DNA of 64,000 nt, from the NCBI GenBank assembly GCA_044892505.1, contig CM097882.1:219294001-219358000 (forward strand), read 5' to 3'. The position numbers were made by a program, and so were the translations under genes. Positions 29,591 to 45,525 of the stretch are shown in pieces. Source of the DNA: Schmidtea nova (taxonomy: Eukaryota). The notes beneath the pieces are model-generated. The model saw nothing but the letters and a program-made list of their open reading frames with translations. It did not search any database and was not told the DNA's origin. Each line of letters starts with the position of its first letter. The first letter of the stretch is position 1.

Positions 29591-30481
29591 CACCAAGACG
29601 ACTTCTAATTTCATTGAAATAATTTTGTGATATAGAAAAGCTTTTTTCTGAGTCCGTTGAAGTTGGTTTGCATTGAAAACCACTTAAGAGCATTGAAAAG
29701 CAATTCTACTTGTTTTTTCTTTGTTGCTTTGAATAAATTACATTCTTCTAAATGTGTCAACATTAACAATATCTTGTGATATTTGCAACATCATTATTCA
29801 CATTTGTTATGGTAATCTCACATTCCTCACCATCTACCAAACTTTTTGGTTCTGATTCCATTTGAAAAATCTTTTAATCTTTTGCCAAAATTAAGTATTT
29901 CCGTTTTCGACAAATATGGCAGAGAATGATTGATTTGGTTTTTGCATTTTGATTTTTCAAATATTTCGCCTAAGGTACTAAATTAATATTTCTACGTTCT
30001 TGAACCCTGTTTTTTAATGAATTGAATAAACATTTTTCCTGATTTCCACATTTAGCTGATCAATTTTATTCAATATAAATTTTATTATGGTTTTGGTTGT
30101 AGCGTCTTTTTGTCCCAAAGCTTCCACTGCTACTTGAACGGGTGACAAAGCATCACAAATCTCTTTAAACATTATTTCAGAAATATAGAGCATATATAAT
30201 TTTTGTAAATCATCCATTGTTTTTTTTACACAATCACTGAGTTTTAAAAATCGTTGGATCATAAATAGTAAAGTATTCCAAAGAGTTTTAGAGTCTAAAA
30301 TTAGTTCAATCTCAACATTGAACGTTTGTTTTACATACTGATGTAAAATTGTGTGCGTAAAGGGGAACGCTTGAAAAATGTTTTAACCTTGCGAACAGAA
30401 TTATTACATACTTTGAATGAAATGTCAGAATATTCAACTTCATAATGTTCTTCATTTCCGAGTTCATCAAAATATTGGATA
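29445..30481 (-). pseudogene. hAT transposase relic, C-terminal half
   Basis: MIQRFLKL...LSPVQVAVEALG..DA, and the dimerization domain KPTSTDSEKSFS......IRSRLGEKSKNAL. Confidence 0.8.
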
Positions 30482-31640
30482 TGTTGAGGTTCCAAATATT
30501 TGCTATTTGCAATCTCAACTTGTTATTGGGGTGATTCGTATATAAATATCAAAAACAAAGTTTGCTTCAAAATTTTATTAATACAATAAAATTACTTTTT
30601 ATTCCGTTTACAATTAATAACTCAAATTCTTTATCACACAATTTTTTTAAAAAGAAAAAGTCGTGTCAAATCAATTCTTGTAATTGAACCTATTGGGTGA
30701 CTGCTATGTAGTGCGTGCTATATTTTATTTGTGGATCCAATGTTTCTGATCCGGGTTTTAATAAGTTTTTCAAGATTTCCTTGAAAACTCGATATTGCGC
30801 AGATTTTAATTCTTTAGTTTAAAATTAGATTTTAAAGCTATGCAATTTTTTGGGCGTTTTTTCTGATTTTTCCATCAGCTTATATAGTAAATTTTTATCT
30901 TGTTCGCCAATCATATAATTATATTAAAATATTTATATTTCAATCGGTCTTTTTAACCATCATATAATTATATTTATTAAAATATTTATATTTCAATCGG
31001 TCTTTTTAACCGGATTTTGTTTATTTTATCTGGCTCAATATCTAGAATAATATCTAGAATTTACATCTTGTCGTTTTACAATTTGCCGTTATCTAAAATT
31101 ATTATTTTTTATTAAATAAATATCTAAAATTTACAATTTGCCCTTTTTAATATATTATTATCTAAAATTATTATTTTTTATTAAACAAAAATTTATTATC
31201 TACAATTTGCCCTTTTTAATATATTATTACTTCACATCTCATGCACTGTCATATTTTTATTTATACAGATATATTACCTTATAGATTTTTACACAAATAT
31301 ATATATAAAATTCAAATGATAATATACGGAATATTTATGAAATTCAAGTACAGAATAATTATATACACTTCAAATACAGAATAATGACACTCATATACAA
31401 AATTTAAAAGTATATTAAATAATAAAGTTGTGATCACATAAACATAGTCATATAGTGATTATTTGAGGCTTTGTTGGCTTTGATTGAAGAAGGGTGATTA
31501 TTTGAGGCGATTGAAGATGGAGTCTGCATTATTTTCGGACTGGGTTTCTGCATATATATTAACCCTGTATCGATTAGGCCCTGTCCTGTAATATTTGTTC
31601 AGGGTAAATGCTTGGATGGGCTTCCCTCGATCATCCAACA
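30482..31640 (-). repeat. 3' LTR
   Basis: Direct repeat of 43238-44396 with the same 12756 offset at both ends; contains internal tandem duplications. Confidence 0.97.
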
Positions 31641-33450
31641 TTCCTCCCAGGGCCGTCAAAGTAATGTCCTCATTACCTTTTTCGCTCAGGACCATTTCAA
31701 TTTCTTTATCCTTTAATTTCATTACTGTTCTCTTGAATCCTTTCTTGATTGCAAGATTTAGGGTATCATCTTCCTCAATTCGTCTTCCGAAATGGGTACA
31801 TAATTGTTTTTCCGTTATCTCTTTTTGGTCGGCACCTATAATGAAGCTAGGTTCTTCCTCCTCTTCTATTTCCATTTCAATGTCTGGTTCTGGTCCTAAT
31901 TCGTCTTCTGCTTTTATTTTACTCTCCATTTCTTTTGTGAAGTTTTCTTCGTCGTTTTCCTCAACTGAAAAATACTCTTCGTCCGAATCTAAATCGCATA
32001 TGTCTTCTCTTTCTTTGTATTTTTGTATTAGTTGCGGTTTGTTTTTAATCATTATTTGATTTTCTGGTGGTCCTTCTTCTTTTGTAATCATTAGGTCATC
32101 ATCACTATCTTCATGTATTGTTTCTTCCATATCTGAATTTTCATCCATTATTATACTTTCTTCTTCGCTTTCCTTCAACTCTTCCATACATGATTTTCTG
32201 TTTTGCATCTGGTATAGGTCTCCTTTCATTTCGATATCGTCTGTTATTGGTGTATCACTTTGTAATGATGTTGAAGCTGCTGAATTCCATTTTATTATAG
32301 GTTCCCATTTGTCTTCTACTATTCCATATATTACCTTTAATATTGTTGTTGTCTTTCTGGCAGAAAATGGCTCACTTTCTACTAATGCTTCATTCAGTCT
32401 CTTATCTTTGTACCATCTCTTATGGTATTTAATCACTTGGTAAGCTAAATTGGATAGCTTAATTTTGAGTGGATCCACGTTTTTCACGAATGAGCACATA
32501 AATTTATCTCCGGCCATTTCTCTCATTCCTGCAATGTTGTCTAGACCAAATGTTAGCATTTTTAATTTATCTATCATGTCAAATCCTATGATTATTTTTC
32601 CCCACAACAGCTTTCTGATATCCAATAGCGCCTGGTACTCATCTTCATTTCCGACGATACTTTCTTTATTAATCATTGTTTTTTCTGTGCAGAAGTTTTT
32701 TATCTTCGTTCTTGGGGTTATCTTTTTGTTGTATATAATTTCACCGTTGTACTTTCTTATACATACTTCTACTGGTCGCTTGTTGTCATTTTTATCAATT
32801 GCAAATTTTGCATCCATGAACATAATTAGTTGGTGTCTCTCTTCTGTGGATAATTCATTGTGTGTGAAAGGTATTTTTTCATTTATCCAGCTTTGATTGT
32901 ACCAAGGTTTTGAAGGGATTGGCGGCATTGATTGGAATGGATTTGATATCAGAGGGATATAGAGTATCTCGATTCCTATGACACACGGTAAGTTGTTCAT
33001 TTGGATTATGAGGTGATTAAAATCGTCTGGCATACTTCTGTTGTTTGTAATTGTTTTGATGATGATTGAACAATTACTTGTTGTGATTATTGGTACTTTA
33101 TGTTGGCAAATTGATACCTCGGTTTTTGTCATGTGGAATAGGATTCTATGTGGTATTTTTTTCCCTTTGATTACCGCTTTGTCGACATTAAGATGTTTTT
33201 CAAATGTGCCGATTAGGTCTTTTAGTTTTGTTCGTCGAGCTTCATTAAATTTGATAATGTGTAGTTCTCTTTCTTCAATTTCCACTTTCATATCATTTGG
33301 GATGCATACTTGGTTTGGGAAGCTTCTGATTGTGATTGGATTTCCATCGGTACATATTTTGTTTTGTAGGGTTTTGTAAAAGTTTAGAGGATGTTTGTTG
33401 ATCATAGCCACATAGTTCATAGGTCGAGAATAATTTGGCTCTGATTGCAT
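31498..33450 (-). CDS. ORF3 (650 aa from ATG 33450): degenerate REXO4/ISG20-like DEDDh exonuclease domain, acidic tract, C-terminus encoded in the LTR
   Basis: LIMFMDAKF...EVCIRKYNGEIIYNKKITP..KIKNFCTEKTMI...LL.GKIIIGF..LKML...KLSNLA follows the REX4/ISG20 pattern. The track's extra 50 N-terminal aa come from the 45-bp repeats. Confidence 0.75.
   Translation of the reverse strand: MQSEPNYSRPMNYVAMINKHPLNFYKTLQNKICTDGNPITIRSFPNQVCIPNDMKVEIEERELHIIKFNEARRTKLKDLIGTFEKHLNVDKAVIKGKKIPHRILFHMTKTEVSICQHKVPIITTSNCSIIIKTITNNRSMPDDFNHLIIQMNNLPCVIGIEILYIPLISNPFQSMPPIPSKPWYNQSWINEKIPFTHNELSTEERHQLIMFMDAKFAIDKNDNKRPVEVCIRKYNGEIIYNKKITPRTKIKNFCTEKTMINKESIVGNEDEYQALLDIRKLLWGKIIIGFDMIDKLKMLTFGLDNIAGMREMAGDKFMCSFVKNVDPLKIKLSNLAYQVIKYHKRWYKDKRLNEALVESEPFSARKTTTILKVIYGIVEDKWEPIIKWNSAASTSLQSDTPITDDIEMKGDLYQMQNRKSCMEELKESEEESIIMDENSDMEETIHEDSDDDLMITKEEGPPENQIMIKNKPQLIQKYKEREDICDLDSDEEYFSVEENDEENFTKEMESKIKAEDELGPEPDIEMEIEEEEEPSFIIGADQKEITEKQLCTHFGRRIEEDDTLNLAIKKGFKRTVMKLKDKEIEMVLSEKGNEDITLTALGGMLDDRGKPIQAFTLNKYYRTGPNRYRVNIYAETQSENNADSIFNRLK
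31641..31650 (-). other. Polypurine tract
   Basis: Minus strand reads ...CTGGGAGGAA immediately before the TGTTGG start of the 3' LTR. Confidence 0.6.
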
Positions 33451-33886: not shown

Positions 33887-36800
33887 TTATACCAATGTGG
33901 ACCTCGAATATTCACCTGGTATATATTTAGCCAAATGGAAATGCCCTGGTACATTTCTGACCAGTTGGCTCCGATACCGCTGCCTTTTCCATTTGTACTT
34001 TTTATAAATTTGTACGCTAGTTATTAAAGCTAAAACTGCTAATGCTATTATTGATGTTGTGATGACATAAAAAGGCCAATGTGGATTTTTATCTTTTTTA
34101 CGAAATGCTTGTAGTTCCTCTAAGTTATGTATCACTATTGGTCTTCCTTGCCTTATTTTGATAGGTTCTTGTTTTTGTTTTTTGGCATTGTATTGTTTTT
34201 GGAGTTTGGCTATTCCAGTGCTTGTTGGTATTTCGTTTGTATGTAGTGTGGTATTTAGTCTATTATTTGATGTCGTTGTTGTGCTTTTTATTCTATCGGG
34301 TGTTATGTTTTGGTTTTTTATTATATCCTTGGGTAATTGTTCTGTTTTTATCTTTTTGCATCTCCATGTTGTTGTATCTGTGTTTCTCTGTATGCAGATT
34401 CTATATATTGTATTAGGTGTTAGTTTTGTGAAATTAATATAGTTTCCTCTTTCGATTTCGTTGGTTGTTCTGTCGTCCTTTCCTTTTATCATCTTTGGGT
34501 TTTTCCCATTCGTTGTTTGCATGTATAAATCAATTACTCCTCTATTTATGATAAATGCTCTAACTTCGTTTGTTGATATTTTTATTAATACTCTGTCAAA
34601 TTCTATTGTTTCGGTTGAGCCAACAATTGTTATGATTGTTAAGAAGATAGCCGATATTATTAGTTTGTTATGAGATCTTAGATTATACTTGTGAGGTTTA
34701 TCTATCGTGACCTCGGCTTCCGCCAACTTGCATCTGTTGACATGTACTACTATTGGATCCTCGTTTTTATGCTTTTGTAAATGTAAATTCTCATTTATTA
34801 CTTTTACTACTTCATATGGACCTTTATATGGTCTTGCTAATTTTGTTGTCTTTCCCTTTCCTACTTGTGGTGACATAAGTCTAACCTTATCACCTACTTT
34901 AAAGTTGTGTGGTTTACTATTTTTGTCGTAGTCGGCTTTGTATTGTTCTTGTCTATATTTGACTTTTAGATTGGCTACTTTATACACTTCTTGCAGTTTT
35001 TCCTGCATTAGTGTGACATAATCTGGTGCATCTAAATATTGTGATACTCGAGGTTCAAATATTGTATCTATTGGTGTTGCTGGCTCTCTTAAAAACATTA
35101 AATAATAATGCGAATATCCTGTTGTTTCGTTTGGAGTGATATTATGAATGTATGTGCATTGACTTATGTATTCGTCCCAATCATTTTGATTTTTTCCTAC
35201 AAAAACAGCTAGTCTGCTTAGTAATGTCCCATTAAATCTTTCTACTAGTCCATCAGTTTGAGGGTGATACGCTGTTGTGTTGATCTTTTGCATGTTAAAA
35301 ATATTAGCTACTCGTTTTATTAATTCACTAGTAAAATTTGTTCCTTTATCTGTTAATAATCTTTTGGGTGTGCCTATCTTGAAAATAATTTTTTCTATAA
35401 GCAATTTAGCAACTGTTTCTGCTGTTTCGTCTTTTGTTGGAAATGCTTCTGCCCATCTAGTAAAATAATCACTAAATACTAGTATATGTTTATTCCCATT
35501 AATTGTAGTAGGTAATTTACATAGAAAATCCATTGCACATAGTTCCATTGGTGATGTTGTTGCTGGAATGGGGTGTAACGGCGCTTTTGTTTTTGTACCT
35601 GTATTTTTTCTTGTTGCACATATTGTACACGCGTTACACCATCTCTTAACATCTTTTTTTAATTCTTCCCAGTAATATTTTTGTAATAATCTACTTGCTG
35701 TCTTTCTAGATGATAAGTGACCTCCTAATGCTCCATCGTGATATTGTAGTAGGAGTATTTGTCTTAATTTCTGAGGTACTACTATTAATTGCTTACCGTT
35801 GAAATCTTCTATTACTACTAATTTCTTTGATATTTTATATTTTGAATTGTTTTCTTTTCTGATTTCATTCCTTATTTTATTGATCTCTGGGTCTTTCATC
35901 TGTTCCTCATTTATATCTATTGGCTTTTCTGCTACTAGTGCAAATATTTCAAGTGCTCCTAATTCTGGTATTCTTGATAGTGCATCTGCGTTTTTATTTA
36001 TTCTACCTGGTTTATATATAATTTTTAGGTGCATGTCTTGTATTTTCATTGCCCATTTAAGTAATCTACTTGATGTATCTTTATGTTTCCATAAGCCTTC
36101 TAATGGTTTATGGTCTGTTCTTATTATCACTTCAGTTCCGTAGATGTATGGTTTGAATTGTTTTAGGGCAAATACTATTGCGTAACATTCTTTTTCTATT
36201 GTTGAATACCTCAGCTGTGCTCCTTTTAATGTTTTACTGGCATATGCTATTACGTAATCTTTCCCTTTCTCTTCTTCTTGGCCTAATACTGCTCCTACGG
36301 CTTTCCCGCTGGCATCCGTCATTACTATAAATTGTTTTTCGAAATTTGGGTATCTTAACACTGGTGCTGTTATCAATCTTTCTTTTAGTTTGTCGAATGC
36401 TTCTTGATGTTCTTTTGTCCATTTCTTTTGTATCTTGTTAACTTTATTGTTAATTTCTTGTACTATTAACACGTCTTTGCATTTTCCTTTTGTTTTAATT
36501 CCCTTTGTTAGTTCTATTATAGGTGTTGCTATCTTTGCATAATCTTGTATGAATTTACGATAGTATCCTGTTAAACCTAAAAACCCTTGTACTTGTTGTA
36601 CTGTTTTTGGTATTGGAAATTTCTTTACAACTTCTATTTTTTCTGGATTTGGTTTTATCCCTTCTACTGTGACTATATGCCCTAAAAATAGTGCCGAAGA
36701 CTCTGCCCATTTACATTTGGTTGGTTTAATTTTTATCCTTGCTTTTCTTAGTCTCTCAAGTACGTTTGTTATATCTTTTAGATGTTCCTCGAATGTCTTT

Positions 36801-39800
36801 GATGATATTAATATGTCATCCATGTAAACTGCGCAGTGTTGTACATTTACTAATATTGTGTTCATTAGACGTTGAAATGTGGCTGGCGCATTAGTTAATC
36901 CGAAGGGTAATCGTGTGTACTCATATAAACCATCTTCAATAACAAATGCTGTTTTCTCTGCATCCCCTTCTTCCATTTGAATTTGCATATACCCCTTATT
37001 CGCATCAATGACTGAAAAATACTTAGCATCCCTAAGTTTATCATATTGCTCTTGTGCTTTTGGGAATGGATATGAGTCTTTTACTGTTACATCATTTAAT
37101 TTACGATAGTCAATGCACATTCTTATTTCTCCATCTTTCTTTTTGACGGGTACAATGGGTGATGCCCATTGTGAAAAACTTTGTTTTATTACACCTGCGT
37201 CTTTTAATTCTTTAATTTGTCGCTTTATCTCTTCTCTTAGTTTATATGGTACGCTATATGGTCTTTGTTTTATTGGTCTTGCATTGCCCGTATCTATTAC
37301 ATGTTTGATTATGTCAGTATCTCCTAAATCAAATTCATGTTTTGCAAAAACATCGCTGTTATCATCTATTAGTGTCTGTAATTGTGCTTGTTGTGTTATT
37401 GTTAGGTATTTATTATTGATTTTCACTTTGTCGTATGATTTTATACTATTTGTCTTACTAGGTTCGACCACTCTTTTGCCGTTATCATTTATCACACTTG
37501 TCTCGCTGACTTCATACGTTTTCTCTAATTTGCCTTTGAATAGTTTTCCCAATTTTGTGCCTTTGTGTATTTTTATATTACTTTTTTCATAATTCGCTAT
37601 TCTTAATGGGATTATTCCCTTTTTTGGAATTACGCATTCATTAGTTAACATTATATTTTGTGTAATTGCCGTTTCTGGCTCGAAAATAAAAGTGTCCTCA
37701 CTTTTGACGTTAACTTTTATGGGGATTATATGATCACACTCATATTCTAATTCGAATGCTTCTAATGCAACAACTTCCGTGAACTTGGACTTATGTTTGA
37801 TAGCTTTTCTTTTAATCGTGTTATCCGTTAAGTCTATGATGCAGTTATTCAGCTTGTTGAGTATATCGATCCCTAGTATACATATGCTATTGCATTCTTG
37901 TACTACTTTAAATATGTGGTGTATTACTTGTTCTGATGTTTCAACTACTAATTCAATATCTCCTTTTAGTGGAATGTAGTGTGCTGATAGTGTTACTACT
38001 TTATCCGTTGTTTTCATAATATTTCTCTTTTGACCATCTGTAAGTTGATCTTCCCTAATCAGGGACGTTGCTGCTCCAGTATCTACTAGTGCATTTATGA
38101 TTATATTGTTTATAATTATTTTAAGTCTTGGCCTTGCTTCGTTTGCTGTCTCTAATTGCTCCATCATTTCGACTTCCAAGCTATAACAACCATATATTTT
38201 TTTGGGTTCACAGTAACAATTCTTACTTTCTCTAGGAATTTTAATCTCTATATTTTCTTGTAACTCTTTTAATTGTTCTCTTTGGTTTTCGTATAGTCCT
38301 TGTTGTGGTGCATTTCCTTCATGTGATATCTGCGTTTTAACTATTTCCTCATTGTTTTCATCATCTATCAATATTTGCCTTTCTTCATTCCTTTGGATTT
38401 TTATTAAACGTATTTCTTTATCATGTTTTGCCGTAATCAGGTATTTGGCTACAAACGGGCATAAACATGCTAGTAATTTATATGAATTTCCGAATACTTG
38501 TTTCAGCTGTCGTAGTGATACTAAAGAAGAACAAACCATTTTTAGTAAAGCAACCGTATAGTAAATTCCCAAAATTGTAGAGAACATGTTTCCAAGGACT
38601 GCAAAATATCCCCATATACTATATAATACTTTATATGCTACTTTTTTGAAATATTCTTTTGATAACAACACGTCAAAATTGTAATTTCCTCCGTAACTTC
38701 CTTCGATAACTTTGTTTACCATTATTGACAGTATTCTTTCTTTTTCGTTTGGGAATAACATGTGTTTTCTTGCACTTTCTATAGCTTCTCTCGTATATAT
38801 GCCATTGCTATCCATATCGTTGATTTCTTTAAACTCCAATCTTTTTTCAAGCTCTATGAGTTCTAATTTGAGTGGTTTCATCGCCTCTTTCCTATCTGAC
38901 ATAGATATCCACATTTCGTCATTTATTTTGTATAATGGATCTAATAAATTAGTGCATTTTTCTATTTTTCTTGGTACATATGTTTTTTCTGTTAGTATTC
39001 TAGTAATTGGTTGAAGGTATACCCTTTCTCCTTTGTATATTACTGGTAACTCATTTGTGCACTGATTGTTTGTTGCCAATGATACACTAACAGGTTTGCA
39101 TTGAAATGTCTGTATCACTTCTCCTACTATCCTGGCAAATGTTCCTTCTTCTGAGAAGATTATTGGTGCCATCAAATCTGGGTTTGTTACCACGACTGCC
39201 ATTTTTGTCCTTAATATTTCTCTGTTGAGTTTGCAATCGCTCATGATTGTTGATTGATATACTTTATCTAATTGCACTAGTTGATTATGATAGAAAAAAT
39301 CTATTTTATTGTTGAAATATGATGCGAGTTTGACGTCGAATTTATTTACTTTTTGTTTTGCATCTTTGACTTCTTCTCTACTTATGTATATTCCTTCATA
39401 ATTAGTTTGTATTATTTCCTTACCACATTTTACACTTTTCCTTTTTCTAACGAACCTCATTGCTTCGTTTTCAGATTCTGACATATATATTGTTGGTGTA
39501 TCTTTTTCTTGTACAATTGTTGTTTTTCTTTTTTGATCTCTCACTCTTTTTGAGTCTACATCTGTGAACTGTTTCCCTTTGATTTCTCTAAATTTTAATG
39601 ATTTTAATTTTGTTAATTGGCAATCGTATTTATCTATTTTATATATTAGCATTGATTCTCCTGTATCGCAATATGATTCTTCTAATGTACAAAATTTGTA
39701 TATCATCATTTTCTTTGAGCTGCTGTCAAATGATGCCTTGAATTTTCTTAGTTCTACCATGTAGTGCCTTCTTACTACAACATTACTGAGTTTTTCACCC

Positions 39801-41695
39801 CATACGGTATACTCTCCTCCTTCACAATAACCCCCTTTTGATGTCCATCCCACAATATTTACGTCCTGTCTCATCTTTGCTCCTATTCTTGCTTCTAGCT
39901 CGATTCCTTTGTGACCGCTATATTTAGCTTTCTTTGTTTTAAATGCCTCTTCACACTCCATTGGTGATAATATTACTGCTTCTGGTGTCCATGTGGGTTT
40001 TAAAACTGTTCTTGCCCCAGCATGGCATATATATGCTTCCTCCTGATACTTTATGATGCACTCTTTAGCTTCCGTATGAATAAAATCTGATTCTTGATAA
40101 ACATGAAACATTTGAGGCTCTGACATGATTAATTTAGTTGGATTTGCTTCTGGGCAATTTTCGACATCCAACAATGAATATTTTTGTCCCCATTTTGGCT
40201 TTTGACAATCATATGCTATTATTGCATTGCTACCCTTAATTAAATCTAATAATAATGTTATTATTACTATTACTGTGGAGGTTATCGATTTGTTTTCTGT
40301 TTTCTGTTTTATTGTTGTTTTCTCTATTAATTGTTTTATTACTTTATCTGTATCACTTTCTTTGTTTGTCGTATCCTCATCATATAATATTTTCCATCCT
40401 CCTTTCATTTTTATCCATGGTATTGCTTCTACCTTCAATTTTTTATACATCATCGTTACCACGTTGTCTAATTGTCCTTTTGGATTTTCCTTTATAATTT
40501 TTTTGTATCTTGCAGCCAAGTATGCCATGGCCGTTATTATTCTATCTTTATCTATCCCTGTATTAAACAGGATCTTTAATACTGTTTTTTCATCTGCTTC
40601 TTCTGTGGCTAGTCTTTTGGTATCTTTTTTAATTAGTTTCATTTTTTCTGTTATGTTTTCTATGAGTACCGTTGGTCTTGTTTCTGGAAATAGCTTAATA
40701 TCCATGACTTTTATTATTTCTTTTATTTTATTTATGTCGTTGTTGTCATCTTGGTATTCTAGTGTTTCATGTCTTTGTTTGTTTGCGATTTCTTTTAATC
40801 GTTCCGCTGTTTTTCTATTGTCCGATTTTTCTATTATTTCTGATTTTCGAGGTCTTCCTCTACCTCGTTTTGATGTTTCTGCATCTTTTGTTTTTGCTTC
40901 GTCAGCTATTCTTTCTATTGTTTCTTGTAGGTTACTATATTTTTCATCTATAGGTTTAAATATAATTTCTTCATCCCTTGCTGATTTCTTTGTTTCGCTA
41001 GGTGATTTATCCCATAGCCTAAATAATCTATCAAAATCGTTTTCTTCATTTATACTCAGTTCAACCGACGGTACTGGCGTCACTATCTCATCGACCATTC
41101 GTTTTTCTATTGTGGCTACCACAATATTATCACTTACTGGGTTTATCCCATAATCGATTAAATACTCGTCACTCAATAATTCTATTCCGTTAAAATATAA
41201 TTTTATTACATCTTTCTCTCCTATGGTTCCTGGCCATTTGGCTCTTACCGTTCGTTTTAATTTGCTCACTTTAGTGCAGGGATGTACCCTTTGTTTGTTT
41301 CTGGAAAAGTAGTTATCGTTTGATTCAATCGTTACATTTAGTGTTTCATGCAGTCTTTCATTTTTTCTTATATATTCTCCATAACATTTTAACATCTCTT
41401 TTATTTCTATTTCTAATTCAAATATTTTCGTTATATTTTGCCTCTTTACCATCATTGGTATCAAATTTCTAAGCTTATCTAATTCAATCCCATTAACTTG
41501 TATTTTATTGATTATTCTCAGTGTTTCGTTATCATCAAATGGTTGTTTATACAATATCTCTTTAAATTCTTCTATCAATTCTTTTTGTTTATTTTCTTCT
41601 GTGAGAAATATTTCATCTGCTTCTCTAATTTCTTTTAACTCATCATTATCGATATCTACTTCATTTGTAAAAGTACTAAATTCATTTATAGACAT
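33887..41695 (-). CDS. pol: 2602-aa polyprotein: UBL, AT-hook, Bcl-2-like, signal, chuvirus-like glycoprotein, TM, aspartic protease, RT, RNase H, integrase, signal, FN3-like, TM
   Basis: LVDTGA (D at 38083), YMDD (36815-36826), TDASG...TDHKPL, H-H-C-C zinc finger, DDE core, GPY module. Accessory domains are detailed in the findings. Confidence 0.95.
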   Translation of the reverse strand: MSINEFSTFTNEVDIDNDELKEIREADEIFLTEENKQKELIEEFKEILYKQPFDDNETLRIINKIQVNGIELDKLRNLIPMMVKRQNITKIFELEIEIKEMLKCYGEYIRKNERLHETLNVTIESNDNYFSRNKQRVHPCTKVSKLKRTVRAKWPGTIGEKDVIKLYFNGIELLSDEYLIDYGINPVSDNIVVATIEKRMVDEIVTPVPSVELSINEENDFDRLFRLWDKSPSETKKSARDEEIIFKPIDEKYSNLQETIERIADEAKTKDAETSKRGRGRPRKSEIIEKSDNRKTAERLKEIANKQRHETLEYQDDNNDINKIKEIIKVMDIKLFPETRPTVLIENITEKMKLIKKDTKRLATEEADEKTVLKILFNTGIDKDRIITAMAYLAARYKKIIKENPKGQLDNVVTMMYKKLKVEAIPWIKMKGGWKILYDEDTTNKESDTDKVIKQLIEKTTIKQKTENKSITSTVIVIITLLLDLIKGSNAIIAYDCQKPKWGQKYSLLDVENCPEANPTKLIMSEPQMFHVYQESDFIHTEAKECIIKYQEEAYICHAGARTVLKPTWTPEAVILSPMECEEAFKTKKAKYSGHKGIELEARIGAKMRQDVNIVGWTSKGGYCEGGEYTVWGEKLSNVVVRRHYMVELRKFKASFDSSSKKMMIYKFCTLEESYCDTGESMLIYKIDKYDCQLTKLKSLKFREIKGKQFTDVDSKRVRDQKRKTTIVQEKDTPTIYMSESENEAMRFVRKRKSVKCGKEIIQTNYEGIYISREEVKDAKQKVNKFDVKLASYFNNKIDFFYHNQLVQLDKVYQSTIMSDCKLNREILRTKMAVVVTNPDLMAPIIFSEEGTFARIVGEVIQTFQCKPVSVSLATNNQCTNELPVIYKGERVYLQPITRILTEKTYVPRKIEKCTNLLDPLYKINDEMWISMSDRKEAMKPLKLELIELEKRLEFKEINDMDSNGIYTREAIESARKHMLFPNEKERILSIMVNKVIEGSYGGNYNFDVLLSKEYFKKVAYKVLYSIWGYFAVLGNMFSTILGIYYTVALLKMVCSSLVSLRQLKQVFGNSYKLLACLCPFVAKYLITAKHDKEIRLIKIQRNEERQILIDDENNEEIVKTQISHEGNAPQQGLYENQREQLKELQENIEIKIPRESKNCYCEPKKIYGCYSLEVEMMEQLETANEARPRLKIIINNIIINALVDTGAATSLIREDQLTDGQKRNIMKTTDKVVTLSAHYIPLKGDIELVVETSEQVIHHIFKVVQECNSICILGIDILNKLNNCIIDLTDNTIKRKAIKHKSKFTEVVALEAFELEYECDHIIPIKVNVKSEDTFIFEPETAITQNIMLTNECVIPKKGIIPLRIANYEKSNIKIHKGTKLGKLFKGKLEKTYEVSETSVINDNGKRVVEPSKTNSIKSYDKVKINNKYLTITQQAQLQTLIDDNSDVFAKHEFDLGDTDIIKHVIDTGNARPIKQRPYSVPYKLREEIKRQIKELKDAGVIKQSFSQWASPIVPVKKKDGEIRMCIDYRKLNDVTVKDSYPFPKAQEQYDKLRDAKYFSVIDANKGYMQIQMEEGDAEKTAFVIEDGLYEYTRLPFGLTNAPATFQRLMNTILVNVQHCAVYMDDILISSKTFEEHLKDITNVLERLRKARIKIKPTKCKWAESSALFLGHIVTVEGIKPNPEKIEVVKKFPIPKTVQQVQGFLGLTGYYRKFIQDYAKIATPIIELTKGIKTKGKCKDVLIVQEINNKVNKIQKKWTKEHQEAFDKLKERLITAPVLRYPNFEKQFIVMTDASGKAVGAVLGQEEEKGKDYVIAYASKTLKGAQLRYSTIEKECYAIVFALKQFKPYIYGTEVIIRTDHKPLEGLWKHKDTSSRLLKWAMKIQDMHLKIIYKPGRINKNADALSRIPELGALEIFALVAEKPIDINEEQMKDPEINKIRNEIRKENNSKYKISKKLVVIEDFNGKQLIVVPQKLRQILLLQYHDGALGGHLSSRKTASRLLQKYYWEELKKDVKRWCNACTICATRKNTGTKTKAPLHPIPATTSPMELCAMDFLCKLPTTINGNKHILVFSDYFTRWAEAFPTKDETAETVAKLLIEKIIFKIGTPKRLLTDKGTNFTSELIKRVANIFNMQKINTTAYHPQTDGLVERFNGTLLSRLAVFVGKNQNDWDEYISQCTYIHNITPNETTGYSHYYLMFLREPATPIDTIFEPRVSQYLDAPDYVTLMQEKLQEVYKVANLKVKYRQEQYKADYDKNSKPHNFKVGDKVRLMSPQVGKGKTTKLARPYKGPYEVVKVINENLHLQKHKNEDPIVVHVNRCKLAEAEVTIDKPHKYNLRSHNKLIISAIFLTIITIVGSTETIEFDRVLIKISTNEVRAFIINRGVIDLYMQTTNGKNPKMIKGKDDRTTNEIERGNYINFTKLTPNTIYRICIQRNTDTTTWRCKKIKTEQLPKDIIKNQNITPDRIKSTTTTSNNRLNTTLHTNEIPTSTGIAKLQKQYNAKKQKQEPIKIRQGRPIVIHNLEELQAFRKKDKNPHWPFYVITTSIIALAVLALITSVQIYKKYKWKRQRYRSQLVRNVPGHFHLAKYIPGEYSRSTLV

Positions 41696-42988
41696 TTAAA
41701 GCTTTCTCTCAATAAGTCTTCCATATTGCGTTTTAAATTCTTTTAATTCTTCTCTTAATATGTTTATTTCTTTATTTGCTGATTCAAGCTCAGCGCTATT
41801 TACCTGCTTTATCTCAGGCTCATTTTTAAATCTTACTCTTATCGGTGAATCTGCTCGTGGTTTATTACATACCTTTGCTAGGTGACCATACTTTTGGCAA
41901 TTGTAACACTTTATTTGTCCATTAAAATTCACTTTATCCCTACCCTCATTATTATAAGTATTTCGCCTCACTGGGCTATCTTGTCTATTTCTCGAATTAT
42001 CTCTATATCTATTATCTCTTCTATTATATTCGAAGCGACTATCTCTATTATTTCTATTATATCCACTGTAACTGTTATAACCAGAACGATTATCTCTAAA
42101 ATTATCTCTGTTGTCTTTATCATTATTTCTGTCAAAACGATTGTCTCTAAAACTATCTCTATTATTATTCCCTTTATAGTTATCTTTAAAATTATCTCTA
42201 TTTCTATTATCAAAATTTTTATTTCCTGAACTGTTAAACTTTCCCTTGTTTTCAGGTGATTGGCTTCTATTAGGACTAAATTTTCTTCTATTATTAACAA
42301 AATTCAAATATAATTGTTTCATTTCTTCCCAAGGGATACTATCATCTTTATTTTTCAACTCAGGTTTTACCTCAAGTTGCTTTTCAATTTCTACAGCGTC
42401 TATCTCTGGTCTAAATCGATCTCTTTGTATTGCTTCGATACGTTTTGCTTTTTGTACTAATTCATTTAAGTCTTCATATTCAATCGTAATTAATGCTTTG
42501 TATAAATATTTTTGGATTCCGTTCCAAAACTGATCCTCGATTAACCTACTAGTGTGATCTCCTGCACCAAATGCCTTTTTTGCTAATTCTGTTATCGTGT
42601 ATATATATTCACCTACTGATTCTCTTGCTCCTTGGTATCTACTTCTAAATTTTTGAACATTTATTTTTTGTAAGTCTCTATCTATTACTATTTCTTTTCT
42701 AAGGTTTGTAACTAACTCTTGATAATTAATGCCTTTACATGCTAAATTATTGTATGCTTGTAATGCATATCCTTTTAAATATAATGGAATTCGTTGTTTT
42801 AATTCATTTGTTTTCCATCCGCAAGCCTCTGCATATTGTGCGATTTCGGCAAAAAAGTCGTCGAACTTTTCAGGGTCTCCTTTATATGATTCTATTGGTA
42901 GTGTTTTTATAAAATTATGATTACTGTTGATGTTGTCTGTATTGCTGTTACTTCAACTATTATTGCTGCCTGTACTATTATTACTCAT
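41696..42988 (-). pseudogene. gag: gag (430 codons) with an in-frame TGA at codon 12
   Basis: ATG 42988 MSNNSTGSNNS*SNSN... followed by an open capsid-like region (YKGDPEKFDDFF...W...RYQGARESVGEY), an RD/N-rich tract and a zinc knuckle CYNCQKYGHLAKVC. Confidence 0.88.
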
Positions 42989-43217: not shown

Positions 43218-43235
43218 TCCCGGTTCGCGGCACCA
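43218..43235 (-). other. Primer-binding site, most similar to tRNA-His
   Basis: TGGTGCCGCGAACCGGGA, 2 nt after the 5' LTR. The TGGTGCCG start matches His-tRNA 3' ends; the tRNA identity is inference. Confidence 0.8.
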
Positions 43236-43237
43236 AA

Positions 43238-44396
43238 TGTTGAGGTTCCAAATATTTGCTATTTGCAATCTCAACTTGTTATTGGGGTGATTCGTATATA
43301 AATATCAAAAACAAAGTTTGCTTCAAAATTTTATTAATACAATAAAATTACTTTTTATTCCGTTTACAATTAATAACTCAAATTCTTTATCACACAATTT
43401 TTTTAAAAAGAAAAAGTCGTGTCAAATCAATTCTTGTAATTGAACCTATTGGGTGACTGCTATGTAGTGCGTGCTATATTTTATTTGTGGATCCAATGTT
43501 TCTGATCCGGGTTTTAATAAGTTTTTCAAGATTTCCTTGAAAACTCGATATTGCGCAGATTTTAATTCTTTAGTTTAAAATTAGATTTTAAAGCTATGCA
43601 ATTTTTTGGGCGTTTTTTCTGATTTTTCCATCAGCTTATATAGTAAATTTTTATCTTGTTCGCCAATCATATAATTATATTAAAATATTTATATTTCAAT
43701 CGGTCTTTTTAACCATCATATAATTATATTTATTAAAATATTTATATTTCAATCGGTCTTTTTAACCGGATTTTGTTTATTTTATCTGGCTCAATATCTA
43801 GAATAATATCTAGAATTTACATCTTGTCGTTTTACAATTTGCCGTTATCTAAAATTATTATTTTTTATTAAATAAATATCTAAAATTTACAATTTGCCCT
43901 TTTTAATATATTATTATCTAAAATTATTATTTTTTATTAAACAAAAATTTATTATCTACAATTTGCCCTTTTTAATATATTATTACTTCACATCTCATGC
44001 ACTGTCATATTTTTATTTATACAGATATATTACCTTATAGATTTTTACACAAATATATATATAAAATTCAAATGATAATATACGGAATATTTATGAAATT
44101 CAAGTACAGAATAATTATATACACTTCAAATACAGAATAATGACACTCATATACAAAATTTAAAAGTATATTAAATAATAAAGTTGTGATCACATAAACA
44201 TAGTCATATAGTGATTATTTGAGGCTTTGTTGGCTTTGATTGAAGAAGGGTGATTATTTGAGGCGATTGAAGATGGAGTCTGCATTATTTTCGGACTGGG
44301 TTTCTGCATATATATTAACCCTGTATCGATTAGGCCCTGTCCTGTAATATTTGTTCAGGGTAAATGCTTGGATGGGCTTCCCTCGATCATCCAACA
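43238..44396 (-). repeat. 5' LTR
   Basis: Direct repeat of 30482-31640; no difference found by eye. Confidence 0.97.
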
Positions 44397-45000
44397 GATA
44401 TCACAATCAGATTCATTGAATTCGTTTGTTTCTATTCTTGCTTCACTATTCGAGAAATGTCTGTAAAGCCAAGATGTACTCATGGTTCATATATAGGATA
44501 ATTTCATCTTCCGATTCTTTTCCAAATTTAATATTTACTGATGCTCCGTCACATGTGACCACAATATCAATCAATTAGTTCCCTCGTTATTTATGAAACA
44601 CAACTTCAGTGTATGTGAATTAAACGCAAATTTATAAATTCTAAATCGGAATTATAAAGGTTCAGGAATCTTCTGTCCGTAAGCTTGTCCACTCATCAAA
44701 AGTTGATGATAATTTTTTGAATTATTTTGATTTGATTTTTGCCTTAAGTTTATTTTTAATTATGGATCTGGGTCATTTATTGATTCACGAATAAAGATGG
44801 ATCTAGTAATTTGTCTTATCGACTAACCATCTAGAGCAGCTAATCTGGATATGATTTCTTCAAAGCTTGTTCGTGGCACAAACTGCAACAAATTAGATTG
44901 AAGACAGTTTTTTTTGAAGTTTTGGCTTTTGGCCCTACATTGACAGTCTCTTTTAATAAATTGTCGATTTTTTTAAATGTTTTTTTTAGATTTTTAGATG
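44397..45000 (-). pseudogene. hAT transposase relic, N-terminal half (split from 29445-30481 by the Gypsy insertion)
   Basis: Minus strand reads SFEEIISRLAALDG, FINLRLIHIH and IVVTCDGASVNIKFG, matching the TDGAS motif of this hAT group. Confidence 0.7.
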
Positions 45001-45525
45001 GGATAAACATTACCATGAAATAGTCAACGATAAATAATTCGTATAACTCACAAGTGTATCGCTCTAAAACGTGGGAAATATGTTAATCTTGTTTTTGACA
45101 ATACTCCTAAACACTTTTTGAAATGATAAATTTAATACGACATTGAGAAATAAAATCAGGTTGCACCAAAGATAAATCAAAAATCAAAAATATTGTTGGG
45201 TTAACCAACACCCTAAAGCAAACATTGAAAAAGAAATAAAATCAATCAATTAATTACCCACAAATCCACGAGAGCAATTACAAATTGCCACGAAAACTAG
45301 AAAAAAACAAATGAATTGAGAAATACTTTAAAAAACCAACATTGGAGTGGAATTATGACAGAAGTGGAACCTGACGGACACTTCAGCCAATTATAGAAAA
45401 TAAATAATACTGCAATTTAAAATACTTGAGAGCCAATTAAAAGAAAAACAAAATGAAAATGAAAATGAAAAGAAAACAACAACTTAAAAGCACTCAAGAA
45501 TGAATTATAAAACCATAGACCTAAT

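Follow-up and report, generated by a model that had tools for sequence, protein, structure and literature searches.

A compact Burro-like Ty3/gypsy element of Schmidtea nova with env ahead of protease in one frame and a predicted second membrane protein

In planarian Burro elements, env lies between gag and pol within one reading frame, and the Env of Burro/GYPSM1 matches mononegavirus fusion proteins (text of PMC6431247). BURRO1 RNA is described as being under PIWI control (PMC8532177, in the part dealing with this element). GAG-ENV-POL elements with a gB-type env occur in nematodes, bryozoans and flatworms; these elements are not monophyletic, and in GAG-ENV-POL errantiviruses two transmembrane (TM) segments flank the ectodomain (main text of PMC13524379). 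The preliminary description of the locus reported here was not aware of env inside a polyprotein having been described; the arrangement is already in print (PMC6431247, PMC13524379, in the sections compared here), has been since 2019, and is no discovery. What remains new at this locus is a predicted second surface-type protein, absent from the texts checked, and a likely pseudo-exonuclease.

The element, its domains and its relatives

The window (the whole 64,000-nt stretch of S. nova DNA that was analysed, to which all coordinates refer) holds on its minus strand an element of 13,915 nt, LTR to LTR, with the following boundaries.

43238..44396, minus strand: 5′ LTR, 1,159 nt, TG...CA, zero mismatches to the 3′ LTR
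30482..31640, minus strand: 3′ LTR, 1,159 nt, containing the final 143 nt of ORF3
44397..44400, no strand: target-site duplication of 4 bp, twin copy at 30478-30481
43218..43235, minus strand: primer-binding site (PBS) of 18 nt, complementary to the 3′ end of the host tRNA-Phe(GAA)

The TG...CA LTRs, the target-site duplication and the tRNA PBS are those of a Ty3/gypsy (Metaviridae) LTR element, as is the order protease, reverse transcriptase, RNase H and integrase (PR-RT-RH-IN), with a gypsy-type RT and RH and a GPY integrase; the Ty3/gypsy lineage proposed earlier is thereby supported. Since the two LTRs are identical (0 differences in 1,159), the insertion appears to be recent. On both flanks (window 29800-30481 and 44397-45200) the minus strand carries what we take to be the decayed remains of a hAT-like transposase, uninterrupted across the insertion. 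Elsewhere in the window are a second, decayed gypsy element (61531-63698, minus strand; RT, RNase H and integrase fragments) and host exons (4464-28430, plus strand) encoding a C2 domain, a TM2 domain and an MTR4/Ski2 helicase; a search with the MTR4 exon gave nothing closely related, the best match being 54%. The primer tRNA, tRNA-Phe(GAA), occurs in 240-bp tandem arrays from G000:C1:566906066 onward (locus L146), and a 20-nt piece of it has 2,595 matches genome-wide.

The ORF at 41695..33887 on the minus strand is stop-free over 2,602 aa, and the order of its Pfam matches bears out the claim that env stands ahead of PR-RT-RH-IN in a single frame. The family product is longer: one chain of ~3,030 aa in the order Gag-Ubl-Bcl2-Env-PR-RT-RH-IN-membrane protein. 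Its enzymes are the following (residues are numbered in the 2,602-aa ORF).

37847..38140, minus strand: aspartic protease, DTGA, D1205; Pfam RVP at aa 1186-1283
37256..37828, minus strand: PR-RT spacer, conserved in relatives, at the position of Burro's dUTPase-like domain
36035..37147, minus strand: reverse transcriptase (YMDD) and RNase H; Pfam RVT_1 at aa 1517-1675, RNase H at aa 1759-1887
34727..35779, minus strand: integrase (H2C2, core, GPY); Pfam integrase at aa 1973-2145

The PR-RT spacer has no Pfam dUTPase match. Ahead of env lie gag and an accessory region.

41699..42988, minus strand: gag, capsid-like with one CCHC knuckle, the N-terminus of the family polyprotein; zf-CCHC E 2e-4
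41096..41353, minus strand: likely ubiquitin/SUMO-like domain, aa ~115-200; matches P0002 766-841, small-set iE 7e-7
40394..40588, minus strand: likely Bcl-2-like domain, aa 370-434; Pfam Bcl-2 E 5.1e-5, under the cut-off

The Retrotrans_gag match of gag in Pfam is weak (E 0.026); by phmmer, gag matches the Gag of the database proteins P0002, P0008 and P0004. Residues 766-841 of P0002 themselves match Pfam ubiquitin at E 4.4e-5, under the cut-off. The weak Bcl-2 match recurs in P0128 and in both sister families introduced below, and the region gave no usable match in the ESM atlas. An AT-hook-like motif, also present in P0127, occurs in the accessory region (window 40841-40870, minus strand; Pfam E 0.15).

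A further reading frame follows the polyprotein.

31498..33450, minus strand: ORF3, 650 aa, ISG20-like DEDDh exonuclease fold and an acidic C-terminal half

Matches of ORF3 to ISG20 and ISG20L2 are weak (E 2e-4 to 6e-3), and Foldseek gave the same top ISG20-type matches on a poor model (pLDDT 37.7), which we treat as supporting only. The ORF3 of a sister family has a clear ISG20-type match (E 2.6e-7) with the catalytic motifs in place. By eye, the catalytic residues are mostly missing from the ORF3 described here and from its two database homologues, and the protein is therefore likely a catalytically dead pseudo-enzyme. Acetyl-CoA carboxylase matches in the ORF3 search were rejected, as they stem from a chimeric tail of P0121.

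Among the 120 homologues listed, seven carry the env family, and on rescanning six of these seven have env before the protease in one ORF. P0077, labelled env-after-IN in the tree, yielded no env on rescanning. The genome also contains two sister families, about 50% identical in RT and 36-37% in env, that likewise have env before PR in one ORF. Their ORFs (loci L142-L145) extend to about 3,390-3,400 codons on the same plan, with a doubled helical and Ubl module, and their ORF3 exonuclease has intact-looking catalytic motifs. In an RT-RH tree (FastTree; 119 of 124 rows, the five without a 300-aa RT-RH match being excluded, and no Burro or Smed sequences), all eight env-before-PR rows and one fragment beginning near PR form one clade with an SH-like value of 100. 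P0003 (HBK71150.1), an env-pol polyprotein belonging to this clade, is assigned in its database record to a Flavobacteriaceae MAG; its source is probably a mis-binned animal contig.

Predicted membrane proteins and a proposed model of polyprotein threading

Hydrophobic segments of the ORF fall at aa 468-495, 1037-1059, 2343-2364 and 2539-2565. The first two enclose the envelope glycoprotein.

40223..40285, minus strand: predicted internal cleavable signal, aa 471-491, a hydrophobic run and then a small residue
38621..40222, minus strand: fusion glycoprotein ectodomain of HSV/gB (class III) type, Pfam PF24664
38519..38587, minus strand: predicted env TM anchor, aa 1037-1059; equivalent segment in 6/6 env-bearing homologues

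The Pfam match (Monjiviricetes_fusion, E 6.2e-89) spans aa 474-1136 of the ORF; the ectodomain has no sequence match in the PDB. By PF24664 and by its similarity to Smed_errantivirus_3, env classifies as HSV/gB-type. A small residue stands two places ahead of an (A/V)YDC motif in 10/10 sequences, and such a residue after a hydrophobic run, kept in every sequence, is what would be expected of a cleavable signal.

The other two segments belong to a region past the integrase.

34610..34669, minus strand: predicted second internal signal, with a counterpart at this point in P0001-P0004, P0012 and the two sister families
34340..34615, minus strand: predicted fibronectin type III (FN3) domain, then a Thr-rich stalk; AF2 beta-sandwich, mean pLDDT 67.5
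33887..34081, minus strand: predicted TM anchor, then a basic tail of 37 aa with S/T-x-V at its end, from hydropathy and C-terminus comparison

We predict a type I membrane protein with an FN3 fold and a PDZ-like C-terminus. With the model of its ectodomain, VIA-align returned a best Z of 8.2 (rmsd 2.8, 80 aligned) and a list dominated by FN3 domains, although a Z near 8 may reflect a common arrangement; the ESM atlas gave a weak match to FNDC9 (0.91). Pfam had no match in the post-integrase region or in ORF3, and a profile from the FN3-like segments of relatives (seven segments, one a spurious tail match) scored a non-significant 7.0 bits on the domain, equalled or bettered by 2 of 500 shuffles. 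The C-terminal S/T-x-V is presumably a PDZ-type motif: the chain ends in Val in six of the eight clade members with a C-terminus, two of the eight being the sister families, against 12/112 control proteins, and in S/T-x-V in 4/8 against 2/112. The type I layout recurs in six distant relatives. The literature searched yielded no description of a post-integrase membrane protein, though Repbase, figures and further papers may have one.

The signal, the env TM, the post-IN signal and the final TM are repeated in the four homologues that extend past the integrase and in the two sister families. Together with the Pfam order and the invariant signal pattern, these hydrophobic segments support the topology of signal, ectodomain, TM and pol put forward in the preliminary description, which we infer here from hydropathy and motif conservation. 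Our preferred reading, held with good confidence, is of a compact Burro-like Ty3/gypsy retroelement whose single ~3,030-aa frame would pass the ER membrane four times and be cut by signal peptidase and its own protease. The polyprotein would be made on the ER, its Gag-Ubl-Bcl2 part staying cytosolic. By way of the first internal signal, which would then be cleaved, the Env ectodomain would enter the lumen; the Env TM would put PR-RT-RH-IN back in the cytosol, and the second signal and TM would leave the FN3 domain outside and the PDZ-type tail inside. Once chains cluster at the membrane, the element's protease could free the Gag products and enzymes. RNA-virus polyproteins offer an analogy for release by a protease at the membrane. 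With Gag and Pol initially tethered beside Env, such a scheme would make it easier for enveloped particles to bud and for the element to spread from cell to cell; processing, co-packaging and infectivity are predictions from sequence. Two points weigh against it. Several hydrophobic segments have basic residues on either side, so that the charge rule is clear for the last TM alone, and a single frame would give Gag, Env and Pol in a 1:1:1 ratio, which does not account for a Gag excess.

Selection bears on what Env may be for. In pairwise comparisons with ~90%-identical subfamilies, dN/dS is 0.04-0.05 for env, as low as for the integrase, 0.01-0.04 for RT-RH and 0.06-0.08 for PR, and higher for the env-PR linker (0.10-0.13), the accessory region (0.15-0.17) and the post-integrase part (0.41-0.60). 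Purifying selection thus acts across the family, env included. The strongest alternative is that Env serves an intracellular or cell-contact role, as an assembly scaffold or in cell-cell fusion, in an ordinary retrotransposon that makes no free infectious particle. No report of a particle was found in the literature searched, and intact ORFs and copy number are, in the main text of PMC13524379, no proof of a gypsy-like life cycle. The low dN/dS of env counts against this alternative, as do the signal and TM anchors, which persist in relatives whose env is 36-37% identical, and the second surface-type protein, which is also kept; we consider it possible but unlikely.

The four-pass reading can be carried further, as a tentative proposal that we do not expect to hold in full: the clade may represent an endogenous retrovirus, complex and enveloped, whose four-pass polyprotein is cut into two surface proteins among its products. 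One would be a fusogen of class III, the other an FN3 attachment protein from beyond the integrase, with a PDZ-type tail that steers budding to cell junctions; the Bcl-2-like domain and the ISG20-like pseudo-exonuclease would serve in counter-defence. Should the post-integrase membrane protein prove to act in attachment, it would add a new kind of component to those available to retroelements.

Sibling copies and the private stops

Searched at the DNA level, the genome yielded 40 matches with 91-100% identity, from 40 of 430 candidates scored, and 39 other copies were compared. Continuity of the frame in other copies, proposed in the preliminary description as a check, was found from env to PR: of the 37 copies that span aa 1000-1215, 22 have no break there, and the breaks in the remaining 15 include none common to two copies. 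Break density in the env-PR linker is nonetheless slightly raised, at 3.1 per 1,000 codons (15 events) against 1.4-2.6 elsewhere, which counts against the polyprotein model. The frame is open over 3,050 codons in 3/39 copies of one set and 7/20 of a second; counted from the first Met, the three open copies encode 3,033-3,034 aa. By hand count, open frames of 3,054-3,082 codons contain 28 of the 150 matches that were scored. The gag ATG at 42988 is retained in 34/34 and 14/14 sibling copies (48/48), and no stop occurs at the gag junction in any of the 51 siblings whose sequence includes it. The analysed copy differs from its siblings at two codons.

41696-41698, minus strand: in-frame stop private to the analysed copy, in 0/36 and 0/15 siblings covering the codon; makes the apparent 2,602-aa ORF
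42953-42955, minus strand: in-frame stop private to the analysed copy, 11 codons past the gag ATG; in 0/34 (1 gapped) and 0/14 (5 gapped) siblings

Because both stops are absent from the siblings, the length of 2,602 aa is a defect of this one copy, or an assembly error. Of the plan first drawn up for the locus, the frame with env before PR stands; in the family that frame is longer than 2,602 aa and takes in gag. Starting at the family ATG, the analysed copy would yield no Gag, and sibling proteins probably served to copy it. That both stops are assembly errors, and the locus an ordinary open copy, would suit their being private and the identity of the LTRs, a sign that the insertion has had little time to mutate; but 36/39 siblings are not fully open either, most of them with private breaks, and copying of defective LTR-element templates in trans is common, so that we think this improbable. 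Least credible of all is the start of env-pol at 41695 with gag as a separate ORF, for instance with a programmed stop or re-initiation setting the Gag:Pol ratio: an ATG directly follows the stop in the analysed copy and the LTRs are identical, but none of the other copies covering that codon has the stop, a second private stop lies early in gag, and a single ORF holds both gag and env in P0002, P0004, P0008, P0010 and both sister families, so that this reading is refuted for the family.

Some subfamilies (loci L080-L105) are 99-100% identical in RT/IN yet 82-89% in the accessory region, and others have an ORF3 ~64% identical and a different LTR; this apparent mosaicism suggests recombination. 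An ORF3-only non-autonomous derivative was ruled out, 15 of the 20 loci being near-full-length siblings and five partial. With its small size, recent activity, numerous open-frame copies and strongly selected env, the family makes questions about Burro-like elements approachable, among them how the polyprotein is threaded and cut, where excess Gag originates and whether particles exist.

Comparison with described elements

The Platyhelminthes GAG-ENV-POL errantiviruses share with this element the GAG-ENV-POL order, a gB-type env and intact multicopy members (main text of PMC13524379). The nearest env is that of Smed_errantivirus_3, whose domains I-II share 175 of 246 residues with aa 525-772 of the present ORF (71%, by eye, the env segment alone being compared), against 31-38% env identity between Smed_errantivirus_3 and the other five Smed families (PMC13524379, same text). 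This env similarity points to a planarian host. The published table gives no PBS for Smed_errantivirus_3, whereas the element here has a tRNA-Phe PBS; and the words 'polyprotein', 'fused', 'fibronectin' and 'accessory' do not occur in the main text of PMC13524379, whereas we find a single ORF, a post-IN FN3 protein and ORF3.

Burro/GYPSM1 elements likewise encode one polyprotein with Gag-CCHC, env, PR, a spacer, RT, RH and IN (text of PMC6431247). The Ubl/SUMO-like and BCL2-like domains that the same text places between gag and env correspond here to weak, recurrent matches below the cut-off. Burro elements exceed 30 kb and encode 4,873-5,140 aa, as against 13.9 kb and ~3,030 aa with one CCHC here; their cargo of MATH, BIR, ankyrin and midasin domains has no Pfam match in our element; and the Burro description, in the sections compared, says nothing of a membrane protein after IN or of an exonuclease, whereas a post-IN membrane protein and an ISG20-like ORF3 are predicted here (PMC6431247). 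Lacking the giant size and the cargo, the element is Burro-like and not a Burro.

Nematode NERVs reportedly have a continuous gag-env-pro-pol ORF. They resemble the present element in having env before pol in a metavirus and differ in their nematode hosts (Sacco et al. 2022, as cited in PMC13524379). Rotifer LTR elements share a 3′-5′ exonuclease-like ORF after pol, but theirs is a DEDDy exonuclease ORF3, in contrast to the ISG20/DEDDh-like protein here, from which most catalytic residues are missing (PMC5408684, in the part on ORF3). In infectious errantiviruses of the Drosophila gypsy type, env is a separate 3′ ORF, whereas in the S. nova element it lies inside the polyprotein.
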